Below are positions 41,787 through 58,116 of a stretch of 64,000 bases of DNA, piece after piece; the stretch's first letter is position 1; each line of letters starts with the position of its first letter. Where the stretch lies: assembly GCA_043819095.1 (NCBI GenBank), contig JBDRFF010000020.1, positions 35,890-99,889 on the forward strand, read 5' to 3'. The DNA comes from Candidatus Omnitrophota bacterium (GTDB lineage: Bacteria > Omnitrophota > Gorgyraeia > VGKH01). The notes beneath the pieces were generated by a model that saw nothing but the letters and a program-made list of their open reading frames with translations, was not told the origin of the DNA and did not search any database. A program made the position numbers and the translations under genes.

Positions 41787-42582
41787 GAGCTCCTTCTTCT
41801 GAATAAAGAATTAATTTCGGCCTCCCTGTAAGAGTAATCTTTTTATCCGCTGCAGTATAAATTGCTTCATCGCTATAGCTTTCATTATCTTCACGCACAA
41901 TCTTAACATTACCTTTTGCTATAATTTTGGTTATACCTTTGCTCTCGGAATCAAAATATACTTCCATTATATCTGAAAACATTTCTCCGCGCTGGTCTTT
42001 GACTTTTACATTTTTATTAAATATTGCGATGGAGCTTTGGTAATCAATATCAAGCGCGCCGTCACATGTGATAACTGTCTTGTTTAAGTTGTTATTCTCA
42101 TCTGCTGATACAATCTCAACAGTAACATCATCTTTTAGTTTTGCCTTCTTGAAATCTGTCTTTGCCTCGGCTCCACGACCTTCGGCAACAAGGTTTTCTT
42201 TTTCAATTTTAACCTTATCTTCTGTAGTAATAAGATTGGAATCTCGTCTCCAATCTAAAGAATCAGTGGTTAATTTAGAACCTGTTTCAGTTATAGCGAC
42301 AACGTCCTGCTCTAAATGCATATCCCCGCTTGTCTTGTTGAGGCTTCCTGTTTCTGCTGTTATATTTACCTTTTCTTCTCCGTAGAGGTCAGCATCGACA
42401 TTTTTAAGTTTAATCGTTTCCGAAAATATATCGGCTGACTCCCCTCTTACTTCCCAACTCTTCTCTCCATCCTTGGAATGACCGGAAAGATTGAATTCTA
42501 AAAATTGCTGATCGGAGTCTTGTGAAGATGCGATCGAGCAGAAAAAAAATAAAATAGAAAAAATAATAATCAATCGTATCAT
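41761..42582 (-). CDS. LptA/OstA-family periplasmic LPS transport protein (LptC/LptA-like)
   Basis: 273 aa; N-terminal signal/anchor, beta-jellyroll-like repeats, C-terminal EAIYTAADKKITLTGRPKL motif resembling LptA. Confidence 0.6.
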   Translation of the reverse strand: MIRLIIIFSILFFFCSIASSQDSDQQFLEFNLSGHSKDGEKSWEVRGESADIFSETIKLKNVDADLYGEEKVNITAETGSLNKTSGDMHLEQDVVAITETGSKLTTDSLDWRRDSNLITTEDKVKIEKENLVAEGRGAEAKTDFKKAKLKDDVTVEIVSADENNNLNKTVITCDGALDIDYQSSIAIFNKNVKVKDQRGEMFSDIMEVYFDSESKGITKIIAKGNVKIVREDNESYSDEAIYTAADKKITLTGRPKLILYSEEGALDNASFGN

Positions 42583-43103
42583 TTCTGATACTTACTTATG
42601 AGCTTATTCCATTTGTATTGGGATTTCAAAATTAGCTCGATCACTTCTCTTACCGCGCCATTACCACCTTTTTTCCTGGTTATATAATTTGCAACTCTTT
42701 TCACTTCTGGAGCTGCATTGGCAACGGCAACGGCAAGACCGGCTCTTCTTAAAACAGGAATATCAATAAGCTCATCACCAACAAAACAAGTCTGGCTCTC
42801 TTTTAGTTTTAGCTGCTTCAAAATTTTCTTATATGTATGAAGCTTGTCTTCAGAATTCTGATAGATTTTAAAAACTTTCATGTCTTTTGCACGCACGTTA
42901 ACAGTTCTAGAGTATCTGGCAGAGATTATAATTGTCTTTATGCCTGCTCGCCTTAATAAAACTACTCCTAAGCCGTCTTGAACATCAAAAAATTTAAGTT
43001 GTTTACCATTTTCATCAAAGATGATTTTTCCGTTGGTCAAAACCCCGTCAACGTCTAAGATTAAAAGTTTAATTTTTTTGGCCTTTTCCCTTAGGTTCAT
43101 CAA
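42579..43103 (-). CDS. kdsC: 3-deoxy-D-manno-octulosonate 8-phosphate phosphatase (HAD family)
   Basis: 174 aa; LLILDVDGVLTNG HAD motif I and GDELIDIP motif. Confidence 0.85.
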   Translation of the reverse strand: MMNLREKAKKIKLLILDVDGVLTNGKIIFDENGKQLKFFDVQDGLGVVLLRRAGIKTIIISARYSRTVNVRAKDMKVFKIYQNSEDKLHTYKKILKQLKLKESQTCFVGDELIDIPVLRRAGLAVAVANAAPEVKRVANYITRKKGGNGAVREVIELILKSQYKWNKLISKYQK

Positions 43104-44063
43104 CTACACCAACCCTGCTCGTAAAAGATCCTGCACATCCAGAAGACCGATTGGGCGTTTATTTTTATCCACTACGGGAACTTCGTCTATCTTTTTCTCC
43201 TGAAGTATCCTTAGGGCTTCAACCGCGAGAGTATCCTTGGTCACTGTTGTAGGATTTTTTGTCATTACGTCTTTTGCTTTTTTATCGGCTAAGTTAGAAT
43301 CTTTTTCAAGATGGCGACGTAAATCACCGTCGGTAAATATCCCAACCAGTTTTCCTTTTTTATCTACAACCGAAGCTGAACCGGCTCTTGCTTTTGTTAC
43401 TGCAAACAAAAGATCCTTAATCTTTTTTTCTTGATTAACTACCGGATTTGCGCCTCTCATCCTCATTATATCTTCGACTTTTAGAAGCAGCTGCTTTCCC
43501 AATGTCCCTCCGGGATGATAAAAAGCAAAATCCTCTTTCTTAAAGCCCTTTTTATCTAATAGGCAAATTGCTAGGGCATCGCCCATTGCCAACATCGCCG
43601 TTGTGCTAGCGGTAGGAGCCAGGTTCAAAGGACAGGCCTCTTTTTTTACACTAACATCTAAAACCACATTACAATATTTAGCTAAAGTTGATTTTGGATT
43701 TCCGGTCATAGCAATTATCTTTGTTCCCATTTTTTTAAGCAGAGGCAAGAGTCCTTTTACCTCTTGTGTTTCTCCGCTTTTAGAAAGGATTATAACGACA
43801 TCATCTTTTGCCACTCTTCCTAAATCTCCGTGGATTGCCTCTGCCGAATGAAGCCAAAGGCTCGGCGTTCCCACAGAAGACATGGTCGCGGATATCTTCT
43901 GTCCTATGATTCCGCCTTTACCCATTCCCGTTACCACGACCCTACCTTTACAATTGTAGATTAGATCTACGGCTTTCTTGAATTTTTTATCGATACGTGA
44001 AATTAGAGATCTTATCGCATCCGACTCAATTTTTAAAACTTCTTTTGCTCGTGCTATCGTCAT
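43104..44063 (-). CDS. kdsD: Arabinose-5-phosphate isomerase (SIS + tandem CBS)
   Basis: 319 aa; SIS domain (GRVVVTGMGKGGIIGQKISATM) followed by CBS pair. Confidence 0.85.
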   Translation of the reverse strand: MTIARAKEVLKIESDAIRSLISRIDKKFKKAVDLIYNCKGRVVVTGMGKGGIIGQKISATMSSVGTPSLWLHSAEAIHGDLGRVAKDDVVIILSKSGETQEVKGLLPLLKKMGTKIIAMTGNPKSTLAKYCNVVLDVSVKKEACPLNLAPTASTTAMLAMGDALAICLLDKKGFKKEDFAFYHPGGTLGKQLLLKVEDIMRMRGANPVVNQEKKIKDLLFAVTKARAGSASVVDKKGKLVGIFTDGDLRRHLEKDSNLADKKAKDVMTKNPTTVTKDTLAVEALRILQEKKIDEVPVVDKNKRPIGLLDVQDLLRAGLV

Positions 44064-44076
44064 CTCTTTCCTTCTA

Positions 44077-44913
44077 TTAATTCTTTATTCTAAAAGAATG
44101 AAGAAGCCTATCTATCGATATTGTCTGAAGCAATATCTCTTTTAATTCTCTGGGCGTGATCATGTTCGGACCATCGCAAGGAGCCTTTTTGGGATTAGGA
44201 TGGACTTCCAAAAATAATCCATCGCATCCAACAGCTGCAGCAGCGCGTGATAAATGAGAAACAAATTCTCTCTGTCCCGCAGAGCAACTGCCTTTGCCTC
44301 CGGGAAGCTGAACGCTATGCGTAGCGTCATAGATCACAGGATAACCAAATTTTTTCATTATAACCATAGAGCGAAAATCGCTGACTAGATTGTTATAGCC
44401 AAAACTTGTACCTCTTTCTGTGATAAGGATTTTTTTGTTGCCTGTTTTTTCAATCTTTTTAATGATTTGTTCAACATCCCAAGGGGCCAAGAACTGACCT
44501 TTTTTAATATTTATTACCTTTCCTGTCTTTGCCGCAGCAACAACTAAATCAGTCTGTCGGCACAAAAAAGCAGGAATCTGGATAATATCTAAAACCTTAG
44601 CTGCTTTCTTAACCTGTTCTAGAGAATGGATATCGCTTAAAACAGGAACCTTTAATCTTTGTTTTATTAACTTTAGGGCTTTGAGCCCTTTGGTTAATCC
44701 CGGTCCACGATATGACGATGCTGATGTACGATTGGCCTTATCAAAACTGGATTTAAAAATAAACGGAACTTTTAGTTTTTTTGTGATATCTAAAATTTCT
44801 TCGGCGGTCTCCAGCGAAGTCTTTAAATCCTCGATAACGCATGGTCCAGCAATCAAGACTAAAGGAGCACTACCACCGATCTTAATATTCCTGATTTTAA
44901 TCTGTTTTGTCAT
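44077..44913 (-). CDS. kdsA: 3-deoxy-8-phosphooctulonate synthase
   Basis: 278 aa; LIAGPCVIE start, KSSFDKANRTS, IPAFLCRQTDL motifs. Confidence 0.9.
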   Translation of the reverse strand: MTKQIKIRNIKIGGSAPLVLIAGPCVIEDLKTSLETAEEILDITKKLKVPFIFKSSFDKANRTSASSYRGPGLTKGLKALKLIKQRLKVPVLSDIHSLEQVKKAAKVLDIIQIPAFLCRQTDLVVAAAKTGKVINIKKGQFLAPWDVEQIIKKIEKTGNKKILITERGTSFGYNNLVSDFRSMVIMKKFGYPVIYDATHSVQLPGGKGSCSAGQREFVSHLSRAAAAVGCDGLFLEVHPNPKKAPCDGPNMITPRELKEILLQTISIDRLLHSFRIKN

Positions 44914-44914
44914 T

Positions 44915-45661
44915 TTATTTTAGGACTATTTTTGAGTCTTTGGATAACCGTCTTTTTACAACTTCTAGATCTTCAAGAGTATCAACCCCGAAAGTTTCAT
45001 AATCTGTCTGAACGGTTTTTATTCTAAAACCAGCCTCTAAGGCTCTTAATTGCTCTAATTTCTCCGTATTTTCTAAACTTGATTCCGGAAGATTTTTAAA
45101 AGTGAACAAAAAATCTTTTGTATAGGCATAAATACCGATATGCTTATAATAATCTCCTTGCGCATCTTCCTGTCGCTGATAAGGAATTGCCGCCCGAGAG
45201 AAATAAAGAGCAAAATTATCTTTATCTATTACTACTTTGACAATATTGGGATTATCTATCTCGTCTTTATTATCGATTTTCTTTATTAATGTTGCCATAA
45301 CGATCGAAGGATCTTCTAATACAGCACGCGCTAAATCATCGATCATCGTAAAATGAATCAAGGGCTCATCCGCCTGGATATTTATTACTACCTTTACTTC
45401 CATTGGCTGGACAATTTCGGTAAGCCTATCAGTGCCTGAGTCATGATCTTTCGATGTAAAAACTACCTTGGAACCAAATTCCTCCGCTATCTTTTTCACC
45501 CTTTCGTCGTCACAGGCGATAATTAGATCGTCGAGCAATTTAGATCCCTTTGCCCGCTCCCATACGTGCTGAATCATGGGCTTTCCCAAAATATTCGCCA
45601 AGACCTTACCTTCGAAACGAGTCGATGCATATCTTGCGGGGATTATCCCGATAACTTCCAT
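44915..45661 (-). CDS. kdsB: 3-deoxy-manno-octulosonate cytidylyltransferase (CMP-Kdo synthetase)
   Basis: 248 aa; IIPARYASTRFEGKVL N-terminus, NIQADEP motif. Confidence 0.9.
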   Translation of the reverse strand: MEVIGIIPARYASTRFEGKVLANILGKPMIQHVWERAKGSKLLDDLIIACDDERVKKIAEEFGSKVVFTSKDHDSGTDRLTEIVQPMEVKVVINIQADEPLIHFTMIDDLARAVLEDPSIVMATLIKKIDNKDEIDNPNIVKVVIDKDNFALYFSRAAIPYQRQEDAQGDYYKHIGIYAYTKDFLFTFKNLPESSLENTEKLEQLRALEAGFRIKTVQTDYETFGVDTLEDLEVVKRRLSKDSKIVLK

Positions 45662-45663
45662 AA

Positions 45664-46701
45664 TTATCTTCTAATCCTTTTTATCAATTCCTTTTGACTA
45701 ACGGTAGCTGTTCCGATTTTGCCTACGACGATTCCAGCCGCATAGTTAGCAAGGTATGCGGCCTCTAGCATCGTCGCTCCAGAGGCTAAGGCTAAAGTAA
45801 AAACAGCTATTACAGTATCGCCGGCGCCAGAAACATCAAACACGTCCTTAGCGACAGTAGAGATACTAACAGGTTTATCTTTTCCTTTCTGGAAGAGGCG
45901 CATGCCGCTTTCGCCCAGAGTAATTAAAACTGCTTTTGAATTAAAATATTTTAATAGTTCTCTGCCAGCTTTTTTTATATCGCCATCCGTACGAAGCTTG
46001 TCGCTAAAAATATGTAATTTATTATCAACGTCACTTATCTTGATGTTCCTTATAGCGTTCTCTGCCTCACTCCTATTAGGCGTTATTGCCGTAGCATCTA
46101 AATCTTTGTACATGCTGAAATGCTCTTCCTTGGGGTCAACCGTAATAATCTTTTTGCCACTAGCACAAATCTTGATTTTTACTAAAAGTTCCTTTGTGAT
46201 AACGCCTTTACCATAATCCTCAATGATAATCGCATCAAACTTATCTAGATTATTTTTAATAAAATTTAATATCTTGGATTGCGCGCTTGAACTGACTGCT
46301 TTTATATCCTCCCAATCGACCCTAACCACTTGTTGGTGTTGAGCAATAACGCGTGTTTTTGAAATGGTCGCCCTTTTCTTATCGACGACGATCCCTTTTG
46401 TTCCAATTTTCCTTTTATTCAATTCCGAGAATAATGTATCGGCGAGAGTATCTTTTCCTACTACTCCGGAAAGAGTCACCTTTGAGCCAAGACTCGTTAT
46501 GTTACTTGCGACATTACAAGCACCTCCTGGGATAAAACTTTTTTCTTGCGCCCAGACAACCGGAACGGGTGCTTCTGGAGAAAGTCTCTGTGCCTTCCCC
46601 CAGATAAACTCATCGAGAATCAGATCACCGATAACCAATATATTTGATTTTTTAAAACGAGATATGATTCTTAACAGTTTTTTCATTCTATAATTCTTCA
46701 A
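45664..46701 (-). CDS. D-glycero-beta-D-manno-heptose-7-phosphate kinase (RfaE/HldE domain I only; PfkB family)
   Basis: 345 aa; ILVIGDLILDEF...PGGACNVA ribokinase-like N-terminus and GAGDT motif. No fused adenylyltransferase domain. Confidence 0.75.
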   Translation of the reverse strand: MKNYRMKKLLRIISRFKKSNILVIGDLILDEFIWGKAQRLSPEAPVPVVWAQEKSFIPGGACNVASNITSLGSKVTLSGVVGKDTLADTLFSELNKRKIGTKGIVVDKKRATISKTRVIAQHQQVVRVDWEDIKAVSSSAQSKILNFIKNNLDKFDAIIIEDYGKGVITKELLVKIKICASGKKIITVDPKEEHFSMYKDLDATAITPNRSEAENAIRNIKISDVDNKLHIFSDKLRTDGDIKKAGRELLKYFNSKAVLITLGESGMRLFQKGKDKPVSISTVAKDVFDVSGAGDTVIAVFTLALASGATMLEAAYLANYAAGIVVGKIGTATVSQKELIKRIRR

Positions 46702-47647
46702 TTATTGAGCTGGCTAAAAGTGGCAACATTATTTCATGATGACCGACTATGTAATATCCTTTGCCGCTTCCTTGAGTTGGCCTATGGACAATATTCTGCT
46801 GCGGACGATAATGATAAATCATGTCGAAGTTTGCCGTAGTAAAGTTTCTTACTTTATAATCTAAATTTCTTGCTACAGTCAGAGCTTTTAAAAATACTTC
46901 TGGTAGAATAACGGCTGAGCCAAAATTAATCAATACTCCTCCATCGCCCAGCTTAGAAACCTCGGCGATAAAATTATGAAAATCTTTTAATGACGTCTGC
47001 CCGATTGCCGCACCATCGCAGGATAGATGCTGATGTACAATATCGGTCCCGATTGCAACATGCACAGTAATAGGTATATTTTTCTTAAATGCAGAATGAA
47101 TAATACTGAGTTCTTTGAAACGCAATCTGTTATCTTCATCAATGGCCCTACCTACTGCCTGGCCTATACCTAAATCAAACTTTGCCCCGGATTTAATAGC
47201 GTCGTTAATAAATCCGGCTGTCTCTTGTGCCATACCAAAAGAGCCATCGCGGATAGACCTTTCCACATCTTCGGAAGTCTTGCCCTGAAAAGCAATCTCA
47301 AAATCATGGATTATTCCTGCGCCGTTTAAAGCGACGCAATCAATAATACCCCTATTTATCAACTCAATTATAATCGGGCTTAAACCGCACTTGATGACAT
47401 GGGCGCCAAGCATGAAAATTACAGGCTTTTTCTTTTTCTTGGCCCCAACAACAGCATTTACAACATTGCGTAAATCTTGTGCTTTTAATACATGCGGTAA
47501 GTCCTGATAGAATCTTCGGAAGCTATTGCCTTTCTTGTAGATAGCGGCAAAATCCTTCAGATTTACCGTACTTTTTCTCTTGCCAAGAGAATAGGTCTTA
47601 ATTTTACGTAAGTTTATCTTACCCATAATAACACCAAATTCTATCAC
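46688..47647 (-). CDS. Deoxyhypusine synthase-like family protein (tentative), function unknown
   Basis: 319 aa. The segment PVIFMLGAHVIKCGLSPIIIELINRGIIDCVALNGAGIIHDFE resembles the DHS NAD-binding core (VFLGFTSN..SSG.REII.YLV....VDV.VTTAGG.EED.IK). Assigned from memory only. Confidence 0.35.
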   Translation of the reverse strand: MIEFGVIMGKINLRKIKTYSLGKRKSTVNLKDFAAIYKKGNSFRRFYQDLPHVLKAQDLRNVVNAVVGAKKKKKPVIFMLGAHVIKCGLSPIIIELINRGIIDCVALNGAGIIHDFEIAFQGKTSEDVERSIRDGSFGMAQETAGFINDAIKSGAKFDLGIGQAVGRAIDEDNRLRFKELSIIHSAFKKNIPITVHVAIGTDIVHQHLSCDGAAIGQTSLKDFHNFIAEVSKLGDGGVLINFGSAVILPEVFLKALTVARNLDYKVRNFTTANFDMIYHYRPQQNIVHRPTQGSGKGYYIVGHHEIMLPLLASSIIEEL

Positions 47648-49698
47648 AACTTAGAGATTTCGTCAACAGCTTCTAGGACATCTTCAACACTTATGGATTT
47701 CAGGCAAATGAACTCCTTTTTGCAGTTATGGGCGAGGCACTCAATGCATCCAACATCCTTATGTAGAAATATGTCTTTTTCTCCTAAAGGCCCCCAGCGT
47801 AAAGGACTTAAGCCCTTTTGGTTTCTTCCAAAAATGGAAATAACCGGAGTGCCAACAGCCGTCGAAATATGCACTGGCCCGGAATCGTTTGAAATAAAAA
47901 GGCAGCATCTTTTTAGAATGCTTGCAAGTTTACTAATTGTGGTTTCTCCTGATAAATCGATTACAGGATATTCGATTTTTTCGATAAGTTTTTCAGCGAT
48001 CTTCTGATCTTTTGGGCCAGAAATAATAATAATTTTAAATCTGTACTCTTCTATTAATCTATTGGCAAGATCGGAAAAATGTTCCTGCGGCCAAATTTTT
48101 GAAGGACAACTTGCGCCTGGATGAATTGCTACTAGATTAGGACTATTAAGGGCGTTATTCTTCTTTAGAATCCTATCTACCCAATCTTCGGATTCTTTTT
48201 TTATCGGCATAAAAAGTGTTTTATCTTGCGGCTCTATACCCAAGGCTCGGATGACATCGAGTGAATATCCCATCTCATGCTTTTCGCCTAAATACTTTTT
48301 GTCATCAAGTTTTTTAGTTAAGAAAAATCCCATCTTTCTGTTATACCCGATTCTCTCCGGAATCCCCGCAAAAAAAGAAATTAGATTTACCCTATTTGTG
48401 GGATGCAGGATTATTGCTAAATCGAATCGTTCCTTTCTTAATTCATTAGCAAATTTTAGCGACGATAAAATGCTTTTATGTTTTCCATATTTATCGTAAA
48501 TTATAAGCTCATCTACGAATGGATTTCCTTCAATAATTTCTTTAGCGTAGGGTCTTACCATCACAGCTAAAAATGAATTTGGAAAAAAATCCTTCACTGC
48601 CTTAATCACGGGAGTTGATAACAATACGTCTCCGATTCTATCTGTTCGAATCACTAAAATACGTTTATAGACCGAAAATTGCGACGCGATCGGTCTTTTC
48701 TCTTGGAGATAAATCTCAAAAAACTTCCCCGCTTGTTTTATAATGACGTTTTCCTCAAACAAATTCATGCATTCATGATTGTATCTGCAACTTGATTCCT
48801 CGCAAGGAGAACAATCTAATTCCTTCCTGACTAGCAAACTCTTACTATTCCAGGGCCCATATTTCTTTGGGTTGGTCGGACCAAATATCGCCAATGTTGG
48901 GACTTCCAGATAGCTAGCTAAATGCATTACAGCGCTATCATTTGAAATAACCAATTTTGCTTTTTTAAGCAGGCCTGCCAGTTGTTTAAGATTAGTCTGA
49001 CCGCATAAATTAACTGAATCATTTTTCATTAAATTTGAGACTTTCTCGGCAATTTCAGCATCATTTTTATCACCGACCATTACAATCTTTACGGAATAAG
49101 TCTCGGTTAGATAATCGCAAACTTTGGCAAAACCGTTCTCCGGATACCTCTTCCAACGGCTTGCCGCCCCAGGACTAACAATTACAATATTTTTCTTTCC
49201 CGATAATTTATTTTTAGATAAAATCTGTTCTATTTTGTCTTTATCCGATTCGTTGATGTGGATTTCGGAAAGACTATAAAATCTGGAAATTAGCGGATAA
49301 GTAGACTTTAGCTTATAGAGATACCGATATTTCATGTGTTCGATTGTCTCAGGAATTTTTTTAAATGGCGAAGTCTTGTGTTCAGCATTTAACAATACAG
49401 ATAATCCGCTATGGCGCAGGTCTACTATGAGATCAAATTTCTGCTTTTTTAGATAAATAAGAAAACCGATCTTACTTTTTATAGCGATACTCTTATCGTA
49501 GATAATTGTGTTTATTTTCGCGTCGTCAGCTAAAAGTTCGGCTGCCTTGGGACCGACGATTACGTTTAGACGAGCCTCTGGAAAGTTAGCCTTCAAAGTA
49601 TCAATCACCGGTAAGGTAAGCACAACATCACCGATATTGCTTAGGTTTATAACTAATATATTTTTAATTTCTGAATTGTTTAACTTTTTGGAAAACAT
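47644..49698 (-). CDS. Tandem double glycosyltransferase family 9 (two LPS heptosyltransferase-like domains in one polypeptide)
   Basis: 684 aa; two copies of the GT9 N-terminal signature (ILVINLSNIGDVVLTLPVIDTLKANFP and ILVIRTDRIGDVLLSTPVIKAVKDFFP). Each is followed by a GT-B C-terminal half with GPxxAS...D..GPxH motifs. Confidence 0.75.
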   Translation of the reverse strand: MFSKKLNNSEIKNILVINLSNIGDVVLTLPVIDTLKANFPEARLNVIVGPKAAELLADDAKINTIIYDKSIAIKSKIGFLIYLKKQKFDLIVDLRHSGLSVLLNAEHKTSPFKKIPETIEHMKYRYLYKLKSTYPLISRFYSLSEIHINESDKDKIEQILSKNKLSGKKNIVIVSPGAASRWKRYPENGFAKVCDYLTETYSVKIVMVGDKNDAEIAEKVSNLMKNDSVNLCGQTNLKQLAGLLKKAKLVISNDSAVMHLASYLEVPTLAIFGPTNPKKYGPWNSKSLLVRKELDCSPCEESSCRYNHECMNLFEENVIIKQAGKFFEIYLQEKRPIASQFSVYKRILVIRTDRIGDVLLSTPVIKAVKDFFPNSFLAVMVRPYAKEIIEGNPFVDELIIYDKYGKHKSILSSLKFANELRKERFDLAIILHPTNRVNLISFFAGIPERIGYNRKMGFFLTKKLDDKKYLGEKHEMGYSLDVIRALGIEPQDKTLFMPIKKESEDWVDRILKKNNALNSPNLVAIHPGASCPSKIWPQEHFSDLANRLIEEYRFKIIIISGPKDQKIAEKLIEKIEYPVIDLSGETTISKLASILKRCCLFISNDSGPVHISTAVGTPVISIFGRNQKGLSPLRWGPLGEKDIFLHKDVGCIECLAHNCKKEFICLKSISVEDVLEAVDEISKL

Positions 49699-50677
49699 CT
49701 TCTACGCTAATTTCCTCCATACAGCGGTAATCATCACAACTTGCTTTATAACATGGTATTTCACAACCAACATCCGTGCATATTATTTCGATTCTGCCTT
49801 TTCCGATCGGTCCTGTTATCTCCGGAGAAGTTGGCCCAAATAAAGCTATTAGATTAGTGCCAACGGCTGCAGCGATATGCATCGGACCCGAATCAGCAGA
49901 AATTACTAAATCCGATTCTTTCATCAAGACCCCAAGCTGCTTTAAGGTGGTTTTTCCTGCTAAAATTATTGGTTTTGTTTTCATCAGACTTGCTATCTGG
50001 TTGGCTAGAACTATATCTTTATCTGCACCTGAAATTATTATCTTTGCTTTGAGTTCTTGATTAAGTCTGTCTGCGAGTTTTGCAAAATTTTCTTTCGGCC
50101 AGCGTTTCGGCTCCCAGTTCCCACCGGGATTGATCACAGTAATAAAATCACCTTCTTTGAAACCTTGTTTAACTAGGATCTCTTTGGAAAATTTCCTATC
50201 ATCCTCCGAGATAAAGAAGTCATAATATTTTCCATCGGATTCGATGCCATAAGCCTGGATAATGTTTAAGAAATTTTCCAATCGATGAATATCAGCTTTG
50301 GGAGATGGAACTTTTTTAGTAAGTAGAAACCCTCTTTTGCGGGTATAATAACCGGCGCGTTCTGGAATGCCGGCTAAAAAGGTTATCAGCGTCCTAGTAA
50401 AAGATCGATGGAATAGAAAAACAACATCAAATTTTTTCTTTTTTAATTCTTTGATAAAATCTATTTTCGCAATTAAGCTCTTGTGAATTTTCTTCTCGTC
50501 AAAAACAATTATCTCATCTAAATAAGGATTATCTTTTAAGATTTCAACGCAGCGGCCAACCACCATGCAAGCAATATAGCCTTCTGGGTTTGCCTTTTTT
50601 ATCGCTCTTATTGCTGCCGTCGATAAAAGCACATCGCCAAGCCAATTAACATTTACAATCAAAATCCTTTTTTTCAT
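49664..50677 (-). CDS. Glycosyltransferase family 9 (LPS heptosyltransferase, WaaF/WaaC-like)
   Basis: 337 aa; RILIVNVNWLGDVLLSTAAIRAIKKANP GT9 signature; C-terminal DSGPMHIAAAVG. Confidence 0.8.
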   Translation of the reverse strand: MKKRILIVNVNWLGDVLLSTAAIRAIKKANPEGYIACMVVGRCVEILKDNPYLDEIIVFDEKKIHKSLIAKIDFIKELKKKKFDVVFLFHRSFTRTLITFLAGIPERAGYYTRKRGFLLTKKVPSPKADIHRLENFLNIIQAYGIESDGKYYDFFISEDDRKFSKEILVKQGFKEGDFITVINPGGNWEPKRWPKENFAKLADRLNQELKAKIIISGADKDIVLANQIASLMKTKPIILAGKTTLKQLGVLMKESDLVISADSGPMHIAAAVGTNLIALFGPTSPEITGPIGKGRIEIICTDVGCEIPCYKASCDDYRCMEEISVEDVFQKVKQFRN

Positions 50678-51775: not shown

Positions 51776-53872
51776 CTAATTATTTTTTAAACTAATCAAA
51801 TTTTTAACCGCCTGAAAAACTTCAGCAACACCGATATCTGACATGCATTCCGTTTTTCTACATTGTGGTTTATAACAAGGGCTGCAGTTTAGATCTTTTC
51901 TTATCACCATAGCATTTTTTGCTGGCGGCATATGCCTTTCAGGAGAAGTTGGACCAAATAAGGCAACAACAGAAACTCCTGCTGCCGCGGCAATATGTAG
52001 CGGTGCAGAATCTCCTGTTATAAAGACATTGCATCTTTTAATCAACGCGACTAATTGCATCAACGTAGTCTTACCTGAAAAGATTAAAAGCTTAGATGAT
52101 GTCTTCTCCTGCAGCTTCTCGGCAAATCCAGCTTCGTCCTTTGTGCCAGTAACTACGACTCTTATATTTTCATTAGAAAGAGCATTGCAAAGCTGGGCAA
52201 ATTTTTCGATCGGCCAGCATTTAGTAACCCACTTTTTGCTTGCACATAAGTTTATTCCCACGATTCTTTCCTTTTTGTTAACCCAATAGGAATCTAACAG
52301 GCCTTTTACATGATCTTCGTTTTCTTTTGAAGGCCATAACTCTAATTCTACATCTTTATCCTGAATGCCCAGCAGCTTTAGGGTTCTAAATTGATGCTCC
52401 ACCGGAGGAATCCCAATCGGTAACTGTTTTACTTTATGATTTAATAAAAAACTAAATTTTCCGTTATCGTAACCGAATCTTTCCGGCGACATACTCAAAA
52501 AAGAAATTATGTGGCTGCTGCGATTATTCTGCAGGTCAACAACAAGATCAAAGTTATATTTTCTTAATTCTTTAGATATATCCAATATTCCTTTTATCCC
52601 TTTATGTTTTCCTTCGCGATCATATACAATCAGACCGTTTAGATAAGGACAGTTATGCAAGATCTGCTTAGATTCTTTTCCGACCAAACAGTAAATTTTG
52701 GCTTGAGGAAATTTATTTTTTATCGCCCTTATCGAAGGCACAGACAGAATTACATCTCCTATCGCACTAATCTTTATCATTAATATATTCTTGGTGCTAA
52801 CGGCCTCTTCGTAAACCTTAATCGTCGACTCGCACATCCGCTCTAAATTGAATCTTTCTTCAACATTTTTCCTTGCCTTCTGAGTTATCTTCTGAATGCC
52901 AGTCCTATCTTTCAAAACTTTAATTATTGCGCTGGCCATAGCATCGGCATCTTTAGGTGGGACCAAAATACCAGTCTTGCCATCTTCGATAATATCCACA
53001 ACGCCCCCTACCCTTGTTGCCACGACTGGCACTCCTGCTGCCTGGGCCTCGACTATGACACGGCCAAAGGCCTCTTCGGTGACCGTTGATAGAACAACGA
53101 GGTTTAACTTCGCAATAATTTGAGGGATGTCTTTACGTCTTCCCAAAAATTTGACGCAATGAGACAATCCTAATCTTCGAGCCAAGGTCTGAACCTCTTC
53201 TTTGTAAATCTGTTTATTCTCAGGAGCATCTCCCACAACCCAAACCTTTAAATACGGCATAGAGCGTATAACCTTTGCGACTGCTTTTAGAAAATATGCA
53301 TGCCCTTTTAACGGCGTGATCCTGCCAATTATACCGATAATAAATTCAGTTTTTGATTTCTCGCTATAGGGCTGAAAGCTGAACTTTTTCAAGTCAACGC
53401 TTCGCGGTATTAATCTAATACGCTGATAAGGAACCGAAAAATCATCGATCATATGCCTTCCGATTACATTGCTGGGAACAATAACCAGTTTCGGCCATCC
53501 CATAACTTTAGAAAAGAAATGCTCTGAATAATATCCGTGGCAAGTCGTCATAAACGTTGCCCCTGTATTTCGACAGGCAAAAAATGAAATCCAAGCGGGG
53601 ACGCGGGAACGAGCATGTACGATATCTATCTTTTCATTCTTTATTATTTCAGATAATTTTTTAATCATCTCTAAAATTGTAACTATCGACTTTCTATGCA
53701 CTGGCAATTTATAGTGGACTACTTTTGCGTCTTCCAAATCCTTAACTAAATCTCCGCCGTTTGAGACTACTACTGACTTATGTCCATTGTTGACTAGGTA
53801 TTTTGCAAAATCAACTGTACCTGTCTCTACCCCGCCGACATTTAGCTCTGGCAATACCTGTAAGATATTCAT
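51776..53872 (-). CDS. Fusion protein: N-terminal GT4 glycosyltransferase + C-terminal GT9 heptosyltransferase-like domain
   Basis: 698 aa; residues ~1-350 are GT4 (LSTVTEEAFGRVIVEAQAAGVPVVA). Residues ~360-698 are GT9 (ILMIKISAIGDVILSVPSIRAIKNKFP...DSAPLHIAAAAG). Confidence 0.75.
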   Translation of the reverse strand: MNILQVLPELNVGGVETGTVDFAKYLVNNGHKSVVVSNGGDLVKDLEDAKVVHYKLPVHRKSIVTILEMIKKLSEIIKNEKIDIVHARSRVPAWISFFACRNTGATFMTTCHGYYSEHFFSKVMGWPKLVIVPSNVIGRHMIDDFSVPYQRIRLIPRSVDLKKFSFQPYSEKSKTEFIIGIIGRITPLKGHAYFLKAVAKVIRSMPYLKVWVVGDAPENKQIYKEEVQTLARRLGLSHCVKFLGRRKDIPQIIAKLNLVVLSTVTEEAFGRVIVEAQAAGVPVVATRVGGVVDIIEDGKTGILVPPKDADAMASAIIKVLKDRTGIQKITQKARKNVEERFNLERMCESTIKVYEEAVSTKNILMIKISAIGDVILSVPSIRAIKNKFPQAKIYCLVGKESKQILHNCPYLNGLIVYDREGKHKGIKGILDISKELRKYNFDLVVDLQNNRSSHIISFLSMSPERFGYDNGKFSFLLNHKVKQLPIGIPPVEHQFRTLKLLGIQDKDVELELWPSKENEDHVKGLLDSYWVNKKERIVGINLCASKKWVTKCWPIEKFAQLCNALSNENIRVVVTGTKDEAGFAEKLQEKTSSKLLIFSGKTTLMQLVALIKRCNVFITGDSAPLHIAAAAGVSVVALFGPTSPERHMPPAKNAMVIRKDLNCSPCYKPQCRKTECMSDIGVAEVFQAVKNLISLKNN

Positions 53873-55830
53873 ACGATTTTCCTTATCGCATTTGTTACGA
53901 TTTGATTATCGTCTATTTTTTTTATTTTCGGTTTCTTTATCAGAGTCTCTTTGATAGATTTTGAAATATTCTCTGGATTAATCAACGAAATATAACCTTG
54001 TTCGCTTAAATGTCTTAAGAATATCCTATGTTTATGCTGCTGCGATATAGTTTTCTGGGCAGTCTCTACGACGATAACATATTTGCCGGAGCTCGCTGCC
54101 TCAGAAACCATCGAAATACTGTCATTGCTGACTATGATTATTTCGCTTAACCCCATAATCCCGCCTACTGCTTCAGGAATATTGTCGTCATTTGCAATTA
54201 TTAACAATTTACATCTTGAGAACTCTTTAAATTCTCTTCTGATTAACTCTTCGACTTTCAAAGGAGTTCTACGGGAAGTAGTCAGGAGAACCTGTAAATT
54301 TAATTGCTTAGATATCTCTTTTAACTCTGAAATCAAGTCTCTGATGGCATCGTAAGAAATCTGATATCCTTTCGTATCTCCACCTATAAAAACACCTATT
54401 CTGGTTTTCTGATCTTCACCAAGCACTGGAACCTCTGCGATGAGTCTCTGCGACTGGTCTTTCAAGTAATCCTCATCTACTAAATTCAGCGAACCATTTG
54501 TTATTACTACATTTTTCCTCTGGGCAGGCCGATCATGCTTAGGCATAATCACTAAATCAAATCTATTCGTGGCCAACAGATTGGGTTTTAATATTGATAT
54601 ACTTTTTGCGCGACTATCGTTAGATAAAATATAATTTATATTAGAAAGTGCGGAGCCGCAAGAAACGATAAAGTCACTCTTTATCGTAGATAATTTTCTG
54701 AAAGAGGATTTATCCAAAAATTTCTCCAAGCACCAAAGGCATCCCTGACAATGACGTTTCGCGGCAGGCAGGGAACATACAGCCAATAATGCTTTAGAAA
54801 ATCTATTTTTGAATTTGACGTCCAATATCTCTACTTGAGATTTTAAATTACGCTGTCCTAATTCTTTGACTAAGATTTTAGTAACAGCCTGGCTCTGTCG
54901 TAAATGACCAATTTTACCATCATTTAAAATAACAATTTTTCTTTCATCGGTATATTTCCAGATCTTATAAAGCCACATGTATTGGTCTGGATATTGACGG
55001 ATCATTTCTTCGCCTAATCTTGTGACTTTCTTAAGATTAGTATCTATATCTCTTTCGATATCGCCAGTTTTTTTCAAATCTAATTTCTTAAGAATAATTT
55101 TATGAAACGGCCCCCTCAGACGAATTATAAATGAAACTACAACGGGAACATCAAATTTTAAAGCTAGCCTTAGGGCGCCGGTGGGAAAAGAAGCATTTTT
55201 GCCGAAGAATTTTGTTAATTGTCCTTCTCTGCCTCCCTGGTCAAGAACCAAACCTAATAATTCTTTATTCTTTATAATTCTAATCATTTCCCTAGGATTA
55301 TCCCCTCTATAAAGGACACTGCCTGGCCGCATTTGTCGATAGGAGCTAAGTAACCTATCGGTAAGAACATACTTTTCATGTTCTCTAGCTACAATCCTAA
55401 ATGGCGGACCTAATTTATCGCATAAAACAAAAGATAATTCCCAGCTTCCAAAATGCATACTGGATAAGATCATCGCTTGTTTTTTGTTTATTGGATCTAA
55501 AATCACATCTTTGTTTTCAAACTTAACATATTTTTCGGTATAACCATAAGAGATCTTCGGCAGGCACAAAACCTCAACAACATGCTGGCAGAAATTCTGG
55601 AATGATTTTTTAGTAATTTTTTTTATCTCGTTAAAACTTTTAGATTGGCCGAAAGCGATCTTAATATTTGTATAAATTACATTTTTGTGTTTTTTATCCA
55701 AATAATAGCCAAAGGTGCCTATAACCTTGCCTAAATACAGGGCGAACCCGACCGGCAAAGCCCTAAAAAACCAACCAAGTGCTTTAGCAGTTGCAAACAG
55801 AAGATAATCTTTCAAAAAATGTTTTTTCAT
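53869..55830 (-). CDS. Fusion protein: LpxL/HtrB-type lipid A late acyltransferase domain + ELM1/DUF1022-like GT-B-like domain
   Basis: 653 aa. N-terminal ~290 aa matches lauroyl/myristoyl acyltransferase (FATAKALGWFFRALP..., NxxxAF..., HFGSWE motif). C-terminal ~350 aa carries the TTSRRTP motif I recall from the mitochondrial-fission ELM1 (PF06258) family. The first 47 nt overlap lpxK, so the true start may be downstream. Confidence 0.6.
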   Translation of the reverse strand: MKKHFLKDYLLFATAKALGWFFRALPVGFALYLGKVIGTFGYYLDKKHKNVIYTNIKIAFGQSKSFNEIKKITKKSFQNFCQHVVEVLCLPKISYGYTEKYVKFENKDVILDPINKKQAMILSSMHFGSWELSFVLCDKLGPPFRIVAREHEKYVLTDRLLSSYRQMRPGSVLYRGDNPREMIRIIKNKELLGLVLDQGGREGQLTKFFGKNASFPTGALRLALKFDVPVVVSFIIRLRGPFHKIILKKLDLKKTGDIERDIDTNLKKVTRLGEEMIRQYPDQYMWLYKIWKYTDERKIVILNDGKIGHLRQSQAVTKILVKELGQRNLKSQVEILDVKFKNRFSKALLAVCSLPAAKRHCQGCLWCLEKFLDKSSFRKLSTIKSDFIVSCGSALSNINYILSNDSRAKSISILKPNLLATNRFDLVIMPKHDRPAQRKNVVITNGSLNLVDEDYLKDQSQRLIAEVPVLGEDQKTRIGVFIGGDTKGYQISYDAIRDLISELKEISKQLNLQVLLTTSRRTPLKVEELIRREFKEFSRCKLLIIANDDNIPEAVGGIMGLSEIIIVSNDSISMVSEAASSGKYVIVVETAQKTISQQHKHRIFLRHLSEQGYISLINPENISKSIKETLIKKPKIKKIDDNQIVTNAIRKIV

Positions 55831-56845
55831 TTTTTGTAAACTTAATTCCTATTCGTAAGGCAAGCAGAGAAATGCCCTCTGCAAAGCTCGGGTTAAACTC
55901 ATTTATTCTAGGTACGTCTTTCTCGGTAGTAATTATTGTGTTTATTTTATTTTCGCTACAGACCCGTATTATTTTTTTTATATCATCTTGTTTATATTGA
56001 TAATGGTCTTGAAAATAAAATCGAAGAGTAGGTTTAAGCCCTAATTTAAGAACTGTATTTTCAAAAGTTATAGGATCTCCAATACTCGCCAATAAGCAGA
56101 CATTTCTATTCATAAGTCCGGATACATTTACTTCTTCCTTGTTTCCTGCCCTGATCAGCGATAAAGGATGATGCACCGTCTCAACAAGCAAAGACCTAGA
56201 ATTTATCTGTTCTGATAAGAATTTAATCTTTACTAAATTATCCGAACCGAAATCTGTTTTAGTTGCGACTATCACATCCACTCTCCTTAGAGAAGAAAGA
56301 GGCTCTCTTAAGATACCCCGAGGGATTAATTTTCTGTTGCCAAAAGGATTTGTAGAATCGATAGTCACGATTTCCAAATCTTTATGAATCCGCCACTGTT
56401 GAAAACCATCATCAAGCAAAATTACTTCTGTGTTATGATCCTGGATTGCCTTTCTTGCATTTTTTATACGATCGCGACCGACCAAGACAGGAACACCAGA
56501 AAGATGCTCTGATAACATAGAAGCTTCATCTGATTTTCCCTCCTTGGAAAGCTCTCTTTTATATCCTCGGGTTAAAATAGCTACTTTTACGCCTTTTTCA
56601 GCTAAGCGCTTAGCTATTGTCTCGACAAGCGGCGTTTTGCCGGTACCTCCAAGAGTAATATTGCCTACGCTAATAACCTTACACTCGAGGTAATGTTTTT
56701 TGAAAATCCTTACTTTATATAAAAAAATAATCGACCTAACTACAAGTTCATAGAAAAAGGAAAACAAAAGAAAGAAAAATTTCAATACGGAAGGTATTAT
56801 TCCGTTAATTCTATCTGTTGCTAAATTGTAAAGATATTCTTGCAT
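55784..56845 (-). CDS. lpxK: Tetraacyldisaccharide 4'-kinase
   Basis: 353 aa; VISVGNITLGGTGKTPLVE P-loop; RGY motif. Confidence 0.85.
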   Translation of the reverse strand: MQEYLYNLATDRINGIIPSVLKFFFLLFSFFYELVVRSIIFLYKVRIFKKHYLECKVISVGNITLGGTGKTPLVETIAKRLAEKGVKVAILTRGYKRELSKEGKSDEASMLSEHLSGVPVLVGRDRIKNARKAIQDHNTEVILLDDGFQQWRIHKDLEIVTIDSTNPFGNRKLIPRGILREPLSSLRRVDVIVATKTDFGSDNLVKIKFLSEQINSRSLLVETVHHPLSLIRAGNKEEVNVSGLMNRNVCLLASIGDPITFENTVLKLGLKPTLRFYFQDHYQYKQDDIKKIIRVCSENKINTIITTEKDVPRINEFNPSFAEGISLLALRIGIKFTKNEKTFFERLSSVCNC

Positions 56846-58116
56846 TAAAACTTTAGGATTTCTTTTAATAAATTTACTGTTCTTTCTGTAGCGCCTCTGT
56901 TTTCTTCGACTACTTCCTTGGCGTTTTTACTTATAGTTTGCGTTCTTACGTTATTATCAAACAGCATTTTTATGTTTTTTTGTAAGCCCTGCTCATCTTT
57001 TACTTGTATAGCGGCTTTTCTGCTTAAAAATGTGTCTGTCATATCCTGAAAATTACTCATATTTGGCCCGAAGATAATTGGTTTTCCGAAATATCCCGGC
57101 TCAATAATATTGTGACCGCCTTTATTCACTAAGCTTCCACCCACAAAGACTATTGTCGCTAAATTATACAAAGTCTTTAGATCTCCGATGGTATCAACTA
57201 GAAAAATATAATTCGAATATGCCGTTAGATTTAACTGCTCATTTTTTACTTTTGAGAACTTAATAACCTTAAAATTATTAGCTTTGATTAGCTCGATTAT
57301 GCTGTTTACCCTATCTATATGTCTGGGTGCTATCATCAATTTCAAGCGCGGATAATCTCTTAAGATATTCTTATAAACCCTGATAATAATTTCCTCTTCG
57401 TTAGAATGCGTACTACCCGCAATCAAAAGACGATCATCTTTTTTAAGACCCAAATCGGTAGTCTGATAACTATGGCTGGGAAACGTCTCATCAAATTTCA
57501 AATTACCAATGACCTTCACCTTATCCTTATCCGCACCCAGATAGATAATCTTTTCTGCGTCATCTAACGTCTGCATACAGAAAAGTGAAATTTTGTTTAA
57601 AATGCCTTTCAAGAAATATCTAATTTTTCTGTAGCCTTTAAAAGAGCGCTTAGAGATCCTGCCGTTTATTATAATTATCGGGATTCTTCTTTTATGCAGA
57701 TAATTGATAATGTTAGGCCAGATTTCAGTCTCGGCAGTAACAAAAACGCAAGGATTAATCCTATTGACAAACTTTCTTACGATAAGACTTAAGTCTAAGG
57801 GAAAATAGATAACTATGTCTTGGTTTTTTATCAATGATCGGGCGATTTTATTTCCAGTAGGAGTAACCGTTGAGATCAAAAGTTTTTTATCGGGAAGTTG
57901 TTTTCGTAAAACATCGAGTAATTTCGATACTACCAATGCCTCTCCCACGCTTACCGCATGAATCCAGATATAATCTTTATCTTTTAGCTTAGTCAATTCT
58001 TTAGGAAGAAAGCCCAGACGCGATAAGAAACCTTTGTGGAGCTTCCGCTTAAAAAGAAAAATCGGGAAATAAATAAGATGTAATATGATAAAAATAATGT
58101 CGTAAATTAAAGTCAT
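56845..58116 (-). CDS. waaA: 3-deoxy-D-manno-octulosonic acid (Kdo) transferase
   Basis: 423 aa; N-terminal membrane anchor, IWIHAVSVGE signature of KdtA/WaaA, GT-B C-terminal half. Confidence 0.85.
   Translation of the reverse strand: MTLIYDIIFIILHLIYFPIFLFKRKLHKGFLSRLGFLPKELTKLKDKDYIWIHAVSVGEALVVSKLLDVLRKQLPDKKLLISTVTPTGNKIARSLIKNQDIVIYFPLDLSLIVRKFVNRINPCVFVTAETEIWPNIINYLHKRRIPIIIINGRISKRSFKGYRKIRYFLKGILNKISLFCMQTLDDAEKIIYLGADKDKVKVIGNLKFDETFPSHSYQTTDLGLKKDDRLLIAGSTHSNEEEIIIRVYKNILRDYPRLKLMIAPRHIDRVNSIIELIKANNFKVIKFSKVKNEQLNLTAYSNYIFLVDTIGDLKTLYNLATIVFVGGSLVNKGGHNIIEPGYFGKPIIFGPNMSNFQDMTDTFLSRKAAIQVKDEQGLQKNIKMLFDNNVRTQTISKNAKEVVEENRGATERTVNLLKEILKF

Follow-up and report, generated by a model that had tools for sequence, protein, structure and literature searches.

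A probable bifunctional late acyltransferase and KdoT-type glycosyltransferase encoded in a lipopolysaccharide operon of a Candidatus Omnitrophota bacterium

What does a protein domain named after mitochondrial fission do when it is joined to a lipid A acyltransferase in a bacterial lipopolysaccharide (LPS) operon? This question is raised by an open reading frame (ORF) in a 64,000-nucleotide stretch of DNA from a Candidatus Omnitrophota bacterium (GenBank assembly GCA_043819095.1, contig JBDRFF010000020.1, positions 35,890 to 99,889), which we refer to as the window. An earlier interpretation made from the letters alone (the sequence-only reading) had proposed that the ORF fuses an LpxL-type late acyltransferase to an ELM1-like domain and that such a link would connect ELM1-like proteins with lipid A or inner-core modification. 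We computed the continuity of the ORF, the identity and fold of its domains, the conservation of its catalytic motifs, its homology and that of its neighbor to the Acinetobacter enzymes KdoT and GnaT, and the synteny of the locus. Our results support the proposed tie and suggest that the fusion is a bifunctional late acyltransferase and KdoT-type inner-core glycosyltransferase, an overall picture to which we give a probability of roughly 0.6.

The fusion gene is a single uninterrupted ORF of 653 amino acids (aa), from ATG to stop, on the minus strand at 53869..55830; the sequence-only reading had given no strand, and the plus-strand reading of the same interval is full of stops. The product is 100% identical to a protein from a metagenome-assembled genome at NCBI (P0001) that is named [quoted passage not shown] In a Pfam search, residues 15-292 matched positions 19-294 of the 295 in the PF03279 profile (Lip_A_acyltrans) with E 9.5e-39 and a score of 133.8 bits, where the cut-off is 22.3, and residues 351-649 matched PF06258 (Mito_fiss_Elm1) with E 6.1e-47 and a score of 160.6 bits, where the cut-off is 27. 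Both matches are far beyond chance, and the two-domain call of the sequence-only reading was thereby confirmed. The ELM1-like domain begins at about aa 297, ahead of the start of the Pfam match, and its GT-B N-terminal strand and glycine loop (KIVILNDGKIGH) run from aa 298 onward. With the acyltransferase running to about aa 293 (WLYKIWKY), the two enzymes have essentially no linker between them. The full-length AlphaFold 2 (AF2) model had a mean predicted local distance difference test score (pLDDT) of 91.1 and a predicted template modeling score (pTM) of 0.87, with pLDDT values of 92-95 over the junction at aa 281-300. The confidence of the model at the junction speaks for a rigid two-enzyme body and favors this arrangement over beads on a string.

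The genes of this operon overlap their neighbors, so a single insertion or deletion could merge two ORFs, and one relative in which LpxK is fused to an ELM1-like domain (P0130) has a close relative in which overlapping lpxK and ELM1-like genes are separate. We nevertheless ruled out the idea that the LpxL::ELM1 fusion is an assembly or frameshift artifact uniting two adjacent genes, a concern that the sequence-only reading had raised and whose probability we regard as negligible. Both domains were present in all 120 of the best homologues listed (40-76% identity, mostly ~650 aa), which came from four data sources (NCBI, JGI, ENA, and Logan assemblies), and 113 of the 150 nearest 50%-identity representatives were LpxL-fused. 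The order of the surrounding genes was also conserved where it was compared, and the junction was not only folded with confidence but also conserved, with Y284, W286, Y288, W291, K292, and Y293 retained in at least 98% of the 119 fused homologues whose alignment underlies all conservation figures given here. Every organism name given among the best 120 homologues listed was Candidatus Omnitrophota, and the automatic names of these proteins in the databases include [quoted passage not shown]

The sequence-only reading held that bacterial members of the ELM1 family have no established function, a premise that is now outdated. The PF06258 protein A1S_2903 (GtrOC1) of Acinetobacter baumannii has been in lists as a putative lipooligosaccharide (LOS) glycosyltransferase since 2014 (PMC4172580). 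Its deletion leads to a Kdo2-lipid A chemotype, which in 2024 linked the gene genetically to the third inner-core Kdo (3-deoxy-D-manno-oct-2-ulosonic acid) (PMC10936431). In December 2025, the purified protein, which was renamed KdoT, was reported to convert CMP-Kdo and Kdo2-lipid IVA to Kdo3-lipid IVA, whereas lipid IVA was not accepted (PMC12856342). The SRRT motif of KdoT is invariant, and mutation of R180 within it impairs extension of the LOS core, with a positive charge being required at this position (PMC12856342).

In BLASTP, residues 3-244 of the 294-aa KdoT of Acinetobacter nosocomialis aligned to residues 299-588 of the fusion, with an identity of 27% and E 7e-20. The Acinetobacter kdoT genes were retrieved from genome contigs via primer sequences in the supplement of the KdoT study (PMC12856342). 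The sequence compared is that of A. nosocomialis NIPH 2119, and the published complementing homologue is that of strain M2; a 22-mer kdoT primer did not match A. baumannii, whose place in the comparison was taken by the homologues of A. nosocomialis and A. calcoaceticus. The Acinetobacter KdoT homologues themselves matched PF06258 at E 2e-57 (A. nosocomialis) and 5e-59. D8, H109, D110, and S178-R179-R180-T181-P182 were invariant over Acinetobacter KdoT and the stand-alone relatives. At the equivalent positions of the fused homologues, D304 was found in 119/119 and H309 in 115/119, H432 and D433 in 119/119, and S519, R520, and R521 in 119/119, with S519-R520-R521-T522 aligning to KdoT S178-T181; S571, S573, and E577 were likewise among the conserved residues of the domain. 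The TTSRRTP motif that the sequence-only reading had singled out is thus present at the position that corresponds to the SRRT motif of KdoT (Table 1).

The AF2 model of aa 297-653 (pLDDT 94.9; pTM 0.90) has a two-Rossmann GT-B fold, with alternating beta strands and alpha helices in two halves, and the matches listed by a Foldseek search with this domain were GT-B enzymes only (probability 1.00; 10-15% identity), in agreement with the GT-B-like fold proposed previously. The matches included GT4 enzymes, UDP-GlcNAc 2-epimerases, MGD1 (GT28), GT9 heptosyltransferases, and a CMP-dependent polysialyltransferase, with the GT9 structures appearing only at ranks 31-42 (~11% identity). A sequence search of the PDB with the domain yielded noise only (azurins, E ~0.1) and no solved relative. 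The C-terminal half is thus a GT-B family of its own. Separately, a subunit of ~500 aa from the respiratory complex I/megacomplex of Tetrahymena (8gym_T1 and 8b6f_A0) took ranks 13 and 15 of the Foldseek search (model m98000171425b; E ~1e-7), and a GT-B match of this subunit is curious given that PF06258 is named after a mitochondrial protein.

The ORFs scanned in the window included no lpxA, lpxB, lpxC, or lpxD, and, taken together with the GT-B fold, this raised the idea that the ELM1-like domain replaces LpxB or another missing GT-B enzyme of the Raetz pathway. However, neither LpxB nor WaaA was among the 50 Foldseek matches listed, and the C-terminal half had no Pfam match to PF02684, PF04413, or PF01075 (LpxB, GT30, and GT9) at E<=0.01, which also speaks against LpxB and GT9, the two identities that the sequence-only reading had named as alternatives for this half. 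In addition, KdoT is inactive on lipid IVA without Kdo (PMC12856342), and a missing lpxB says little in a 64-kb window that does not cover the whole genome. Given the lack of a PF02684 match and of LpxB among the Foldseek matches listed, we rejected this idea, which we consider very improbable.

In Acinetobacter, the GT4 enzyme GnaT (LpsB) adds N-acetylglucosaminuronic acid (GlcNAcA) after KdoT has acted (PMC12856342). The GT4 half of the gene that follows the fusion aligned with Acinetobacter GnaT end to end at 33% identity (BLASTP, E 2e-66) with the EX7E motif kept, and the second GT4 of the operon aligned at 25% identity (E 2e-31). Like the Acinetobacter module, the Omnitrophota operon has counterparts of KdoT and GnaT, and these lie in consecutive, translationally coupled genes; unlike the KdoT-then-GnaT module, the Omnitrophota operon merges the enzymes pairwise, as LpxL::KdoT-like and GnaT-like::GT9. 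The Omnitrophota GT4 half may add GlcNAcA or another sugar; no UDP-GlcNAc dehydrogenase was seen among the window ORFs scanned. An Acinetobacter gnaT contig found via the gnaT primer sequence (PVMJ01000029.1; our locus L020, 6227-8528) has a gene for a 311-aa LpxL-like acyltransferase directly upstream of gnaT/lpsB on the same strand. Given this neighbor of gnaT and the succession of KdoT and GnaT, the three activities (late acyltransferase, KdoT, and GnaT) are genomically linked in both lineages.

Like KdoT, the C-terminal domain of the fusion belongs to PF06258, keeps the DGKxGH, PxHD, and TTSRRTP motifs, including the equivalent of R180, and has a GT-B fold, a GnaT-type GT4 partner, and a setting among LPS core genes. 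KdoT is peripheral and free, with a mass of ~35 kDa, and its gene lies in the outer-core locus, away from the adjacent LpxL-like gene and gnaT, whereas the fusion domain is covalently joined to an LpxL-type acyltransferase, follows lpxK directly, carries a Cys-containing insertion of ~25 aa, and occurs in the phylum Omnitrophota. We consider it probable that the domain is a catalytically active inner-core GT-B transferase that acts just before the GnaT-like enzyme.

A noncatalytic role, in which the domain would serve as a scaffold, regulator, or membrane organizer that modulates LpxL or recruits the downstream glycosyltransferases, can be argued for on several grounds. Eukaryotic ELM1 has been described as an adaptor bringing dynamin-related proteins to mitochondria and not as an enzyme (PMC10936431), and the published work on KdoT identified no catalytic base and found KdoT and GnaT to be interdependent in vivo in a manner that is not understood (PMC12856342). 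Even so, KdoT alone is catalytically sufficient in vitro (PMC12856342), and the donor-site motifs of the fusion are invariant over 119 homologues at ~40% overall identity, which argues for selection on the active site. We therefore regard a purely noncatalytic domain as improbable. With plant and algal ELM1, the fusion shares the Pfam family only, and its LPS operon suggests no role in mitochondrial fission; the name of the PF06258 family is misleading for its bacterial members.

The N-terminal half resembles LpxL/HtrB, LpxM, and LpxP in its PF03279 match, its HX4E dyad, its D-x-G-G motif, and its position in a Kdo2-lipid A cluster, and it differs from these enzymes in the ~360 additional C-terminal residues that form a second enzyme. 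H126 and E131 of the dyad were present in 119/119 fused homologues, whereas G128 and W130, as well as the D197-x-G199-G200 motif, were conserved in at least 98%. The leading NCBIfam matches of the domain were all models of lipid A biosynthesis lauroyl acyltransferases (top match PRK08419, E 1.1e-44), and the top PDB match of its AF2 model in Foldseek was A. baumannii LpxM (5KN7; E 1.1e-11; target-normalized TM-score 0.69).

Several observations weigh against our reading, and some of them concern this N-terminal half. The top NCBIfam score was that of NF006270, at 152.9 bits against an equivalog cut-off of 248, and all other models scored lower; no NCBIfam LpxL or LpxM cut-off was reached, and thus equivalog-level identity to a specific LpxL, LpxM, or LpxP was not obtained. 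Mycobacterial PatA came next after LpxM, and its TM-score of 0.80 is higher than that of LpxM. The chain, the position, and even the acceptor of the acylation are therefore uncertain, and, as far as its sequence goes, the domain is best described as a PF03279 family member with intact catalytic residues and not as an orthologue of a named enzyme. These same scores would also suit a domain that acylates another acceptor (such as a lysophospholipid or, in the manner of PatA, the hydroxyl of a sugar), such that the protein would decorate the core instead of completing lipid A. We consider this improbable, if slightly less so than a noncatalytic C-terminal domain, given that the top profile matches were all lipid A lauroyl acyltransferases (E 1e-44 versus 1e-10 for the PatA model), that the lowest Foldseek E-value belongs to LpxM, that the fusion gene comes directly after waaA and lpxK, and that the ORFs scanned in the window included no further lpxL-like gene. 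The membrane association of the protein calls for similar caution. Two N-terminal helices are predicted at aa 5-24 and 27-44; they are moderately hydrophobic, with a maximal 19-aa Kyte-Doolittle value of 1.22, under the usual threshold for a transmembrane (TM) segment, and the protein may either span the membrane or dip into it.

Other points against the reading concern the transferred sugar. PF06258 is broad (~2,350 representatives at E<=1e-3, including eukaryotic ELM1), and this breadth, together with an identity to KdoT of 27%, means that the donor sugar cannot be read from the sequence. The SRRT motif is family-wide and not specific for Kdo, the ~25-aa Cys-containing insertion of the fusion clade is not found in Acinetobacter KdoT, and speaking of a "third Kdo" in this organism is an extrapolation, given that its WaaA may add one, two, or more Kdo residues. 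The insertion holds three cysteines, C361, C364, and C367, which were conserved in 76-82% of the homologues and, where lost, tended to be replaced as a block (xRF/xRY). It is also the lowest-confidence part of the C-domain model (pLDDT 73). A C-x2-C-x2-C-like pattern was seen in three of the four stand-alone relatives aligned, and C391 and C540 were frequent among the homologues. A four-Cys zinc site formed by C352 with the trio was rejected as stated, given that C352 was conserved in only 13% of the homologues.

The distance from KdoT, the size and diversity of the family, and the clade-specific insertion would all suit a bifunctional enzyme whose donor sugar is not Kdo (but, for example, a hexose, heptose, uronic acid, or different ulosonic acid) or that acts on another position of the lipid A/inner-core acceptor. 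The same is true of the stand-alone relatives that lie elsewhere, near msbA, methyltransferases, and O-antigen genes, and of the fact that no determinants of donor specificity are known for the family, with the catalytic base of KdoT not having been identified either (PMC12856342). On the other hand, every residue that is implicated in KdoT function or conserved in KdoT was invariant, or nearly so, in the fusion homologues, GnaT as the successor enzyme is clearly matched by the gene that follows, and a homologue from Rickettsia, a member of another proteobacterial class (Alphaproteobacteria), still partially complements a delta-kdoT strain (PMC12856342). The operon also has waaA and a KdsC-like gene, which were matched directly, as well as kdsA, kdsB, and kdsD, which were assigned by reading their translations. 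We consider the alternative of a different sugar or position unlikely, though it is the most serious of those weighed here. By analogy with KdoT, Kdo itself is the favored candidate for the sugar transferred, at slightly better than even odds.

With respect to mechanism, we infer the donors, the acceptors, the order of the reactions, the membrane association, and the benefit of the fusion as follows. WaaA would make Kdo(n)-lipid IVA, and both domains of the fusion probably work on this product at the cytoplasmic face of the inner membrane. The N-terminal domain, through H126 and E131, would transfer a secondary acyl chain from acyl-acyl carrier protein to Kdo-substituted lipid IVA, whereas the C-terminal domain, as an inverting GT-B enzyme, would add an extra Kdo from CMP-Kdo to Kdo(n)-lipid IVA or lipid A, with R520 and R521 of the SRRT motif positioning the CMP-Kdo donor; the two reactions could occur in either order. 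The GnaT-like GT4 half of the next, ATGA-coupled gene would then add the following sugar, after which the GT9 domains would extend the core. The fusion would probably tether a peripheral glycosyltransferase at the site of lipid A completion, in 1:1 stoichiometry with its operon neighbor.

The relatives of the C-terminal domain bear on what the fusion might be for. An exhaustive HMMER search with this domain gave 2,356 representatives at E<=1e-3, of which 269 reached E<=1e-30. The 113 LpxL-fused proteins among the 150 nearest 50%-identity representatives comprised 93 complete sequences and 20 N-truncated fragments, and the same 150 included ~12-17 apparently stand-alone proteins, 14 C-terminal fragments, and 3 LpxK::ELM1 fusions. 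The latter (PF02606 plus PF06258) are P0130 (718 aa; L023, 1784-3940), P0171 (701 aa; L024, 3438-5543), and the fragment P0152. The LpxK::ELM1 gene was found in two independent assemblies, where it was followed in both by GT4::GT9-GT4-(deacetylase)-GT9 and preceded in one by waaA. At locus L022, an ELM1-like gene whose product is 67% identical to the C-domain of P0130 stands alone directly after a separate lpxK, with which it overlaps by 41 nt, and before a GT4 gene. Among the other stand-alone genes, that of L016 lies directly before a GT4::GT9 gene, that of L015 overlaps the end of a gene for an MsbA-like ABC transporter beside O-antigen genes, and that of L021 adjoins methyltransferase genes and a GT2 gene. 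A GT4 or GT4::GT9 neighbor was kept in L016, L022, L023, and L024, and the most frequent neighbor of the ELM1-like domain was the GnaT-like GT4, not LpxL.

In a crude neighbor-joining tree of the C-terminal domain, rooted on Acinetobacter KdoT and built without support values, the LpxK-fused and most of the stand-alone forms were scattered inside the LpxL-fused radiation. This placement suggests that LpxL::ELM1 may be ancestral in the clade and that the LpxL module was later lost or relocated. Given that relatives have the domain fused to LpxK or free, its link is not specific for LpxL, a specific synergy between LpxL and KdoT is weakened, and a mechanism that depends on acylation is less likely. 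Kyte-Doolittle values of 1.84-2.31 indicate a clear TM segment in the LpxK::ELM1 forms (versus 1.22 for the N terminus of the fusion), and generic tethering thus fits better than an acylation-specific role; the idea that the fusion partner supplies a TM anchor is only partly supported by these predicted segments. With these comparisons, the architecture, the motif, the fold, and the operon place described by the sequence-only reading all stand, whereas its premise of a family without known function does not, nor is the link that it drew specific for LpxL.

A stronger version of the proposal is that the late lipid A-core steps of Omnitrophota are hard-wired in pairwise fusions, which may comprise LpxL::KdoT-like (or LpxK::KdoT-like), GnaT-like::GT9, GT9::GT9, and LptC::LptA-like proteins, and that the rigid LpxL::KdoT body, beyond tethering the transferase, couples or orders acylation and the addition of an extra Kdo on one Kdo2-lipid IVA by intramolecular hand-over. 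The clade-specific Cys trio could then be a metal or redox element that controls this coupling. We consider this version doubtful. If it were true, intramolecular hand-over would provide a reason for the gating of KdoT that is seen in vivo in Acinetobacter and has so far gone unexplained. In Acinetobacter, both KdoT and GnaT prefer a tetra-acylated substrate, and KdoT is found in soluble and membrane fractions alike (PMC12856342).

The fusion gene lies in the operon between lpxK and the glycosyltransferase genes, as the sequence-only reading had stated (Table 1). The local gene order is xerC-like, waaA, lpxK, the fusion, GT4::GT9, GT4, GT9, GT9::GT9, a deoxyhypusine-synthase-like ORF, and a pfkB kinase gene, followed beyond the kinase by kdsB, kdsA, kdsD, a gene for a KdsC-like haloacid dehalogenase (HAD) phosphatase, an LptC/LptA-like fusion, and an LptB-like ABC ATPase. 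The genes for CMP-Kdo supply occupy 42579..45661 (-) at the distal end of the operon. The lpxK gene overlaps the start of the fusion by 47 nt, and such an overlap was also kept in two homologues at 42-46% identity, where the order topA-xerC-waaA-(0 or 2 inserted genes)-lpxK-fusion-GT4::GT9-GT4-GT9-GT9::GT9 was conserved as well. The ORFs of at least 180 aa in the fusion's part of the window were all on the minus strand, as were all of those annotated elsewhere. Base composition was even across the operon region (GC 0.35-0.42), and the operon is therefore unlike a recently acquired island. Between 40000 and 64000, all of the 2-kb segments profiled had a negative GC skew, and this, together with the minus-strand ORFs, would fit a single long stretch of a replichore with co-directional genes.

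Table 1. Window positions of the fusion gene, its domains and motifs, and neighboring genes of the operon
Feature	Positions	Strand	Basis or remark
Whole fusion ORF	53869..55830	(-)	LpxL-type acyltransferase + KdoT/ELM1-type GT-B glycosyltransferase (predicted)
N-terminal domain, aa 1-293, LpxL/LpxM/PatA-family late acyltransferase fold	54952..55830	(-)	PF03279; AF2/Foldseek
HFGSWE, aa 126-131, HX4E catalytic dyad	55438..55455	(-)	Alignment
C-terminal domain, aa 297-653, KdoT/ELM1/GtrOC1-family GT-B glycosyltransferase	53872..54942	(-)	PF06258; BLASTP; AF2; Foldseek
DGKIGH, aa 304-309, N-terminal glycine-rich loop (KdoT D8...H13)	54904..54921	(-)	Alignment
CQGCLWC, aa 361-367, Cys trio within ~25-aa insertion	54730..54750	(-)	Alignment
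PKHD, aa 430-433 (KdoT P107-E-H109-D110)	54532..54543	(-)	Alignment
TTSRRTP, aa 517-523, SRRT motif; R520/R521 = KdoT R179/R180	54262..54282	(-)	Alignment
waaA/kdtA (Kdo transferase, GT30)	56845..58116	(-)	PF04413 E 1.8e-60; NF004388 E 7e-107
lpxK (tetraacyldisaccharide 4'-kinase)	55784..56845	(-)	PF02606 E 3.8e-76; TIGR00682 above cut-off
GT4::GT9 gene	51776..53872	(-)	Directly 3' of fusion, ATGA overlap
GnaT/LpsB-like GT4 half, aa 1-359 of GT4::GT9	52796..53872	(-)	BLASTP vs Acinetobacter GnaT
kdsB	44915-45661	(-)	Assigned by reading translation only
kdsA	44077-44913	(-)	Assigned by reading translation only
kdsD	43104-44063	(-)	Assigned by reading translation only
KdsC-like HAD phosphatase	42579-43103	(-)	HAD family Pfam match; distal operon end

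Other genes of the region deserve a brief description. Besides the GT4(GnaT-like)::GT9 gene, the LPS region has a GT9::GT9 fusion at 47644-49698 (-), and both of these fusions were conserved in distant Omnitrophota (L011 and L013). At 41761-42582 (-), a 273-aa protein combines LptC (PF06835) and LptA/LptD_N (PF03968) domains. The GT9 domains encoded at 49664-50677, 47644-49698, and 51776-53872 (all on the minus strand) each have a four-Cys C-terminal motif (for example, LDCSPCEESSCRYNHEC, DVGCIECLAHNCKKEFIC, LNCSPCYKPQCRKTEC, and TDVGCEIPCYKASCDDYRC) that looks like a putative metal-binding knuckle. Despite the four GT9 domains in the operon, its vicinity showed none of the ADP-heptose genes for GmhA, GmhB, or the adenylyltransferase. 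The 319-aa ORF at 46688-47647 (-), between GT9::GT9 and pfkB, has a weak deoxyhypusine synthase match (PF01916, E 1.3e-8), and the same slot holds an unannotated 309-aa ORF in L011. In this Omnitrophota relative, waaA and lpxK are separated by two inserted genes, one for a STAS+PilZ protein and one for a HAD hydrolase (L011, 6528-7911), an arrangement that hints at regulation linked to cyclic di-GMP within the lipid A operon. The trigger factor encoded at 39920-40804 (-) is only 294 aa long, with Trigger_N and Trigger_C domains, and no central FKBP-type peptidyl-prolyl isomerase domain was detected in it.

Fused enzymes are known elsewhere in LPS pathways, such as HldE (kinase/adenylyltransferase) and ArnA. 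Like these, the protein described here joins two enzymes of the same pathway, and more such cases lie in its operon (GT4::GT9, GT9::GT9, and LptC::LptA-like). It is a real and conserved fusion, yet a fairly ordinary same-pathway one, which corroborates and extends a known function and does not reveal a new one. The function of PF06258 and the architecture were already known, the former by experiment and the latter in databases under automatic names, and no new question is opened by them; what is new is the proposed LpxL::KdoT-type bifunctional enzyme and the presence of the module in Omnitrophota. No published description of an LpxL::KdoT/ELM1 or LpxK::KdoT fusion was found in the literature searched, and a search of the literature on Omnitrophota LPS yielded nothing relevant. 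The practical value lies mainly in annotation, where a bifunctional name could replace "mitochondrial fission ELM1" and "KDO2-lipid IV(A) lauroyltransferase," and structural studies of this glycosyltransferase family, which has no solved structure, could make use of the fusion as a construct that is tethered by nature.

In summary, the fusion gives independent genomic support, of the Rosetta-stone type, to the recent view that bacterial "mitochondrial fission ELM1" proteins are LPS inner-core (Kdo) glycosyltransferases. KdoT homologues have been given only in Acinetobacter and Rickettsia, with a delta-kdoT strain being rescued by Acinetobacter homologues, including that of A. nosocomialis M2, and partially by the one from Rickettsia (PMC12856342). 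Our analysis extends the KdoT/GnaT module from these Proteobacteria to a deeply separate, mostly uncultured phylum, which suggests that WaaA-independent addition of Kdo is old and widespread. The physical link between late acylation and the addition of an extra Kdo may also be relevant to how these steps are ordered and gated in Acinetobacter, for which there is as yet no explanation.

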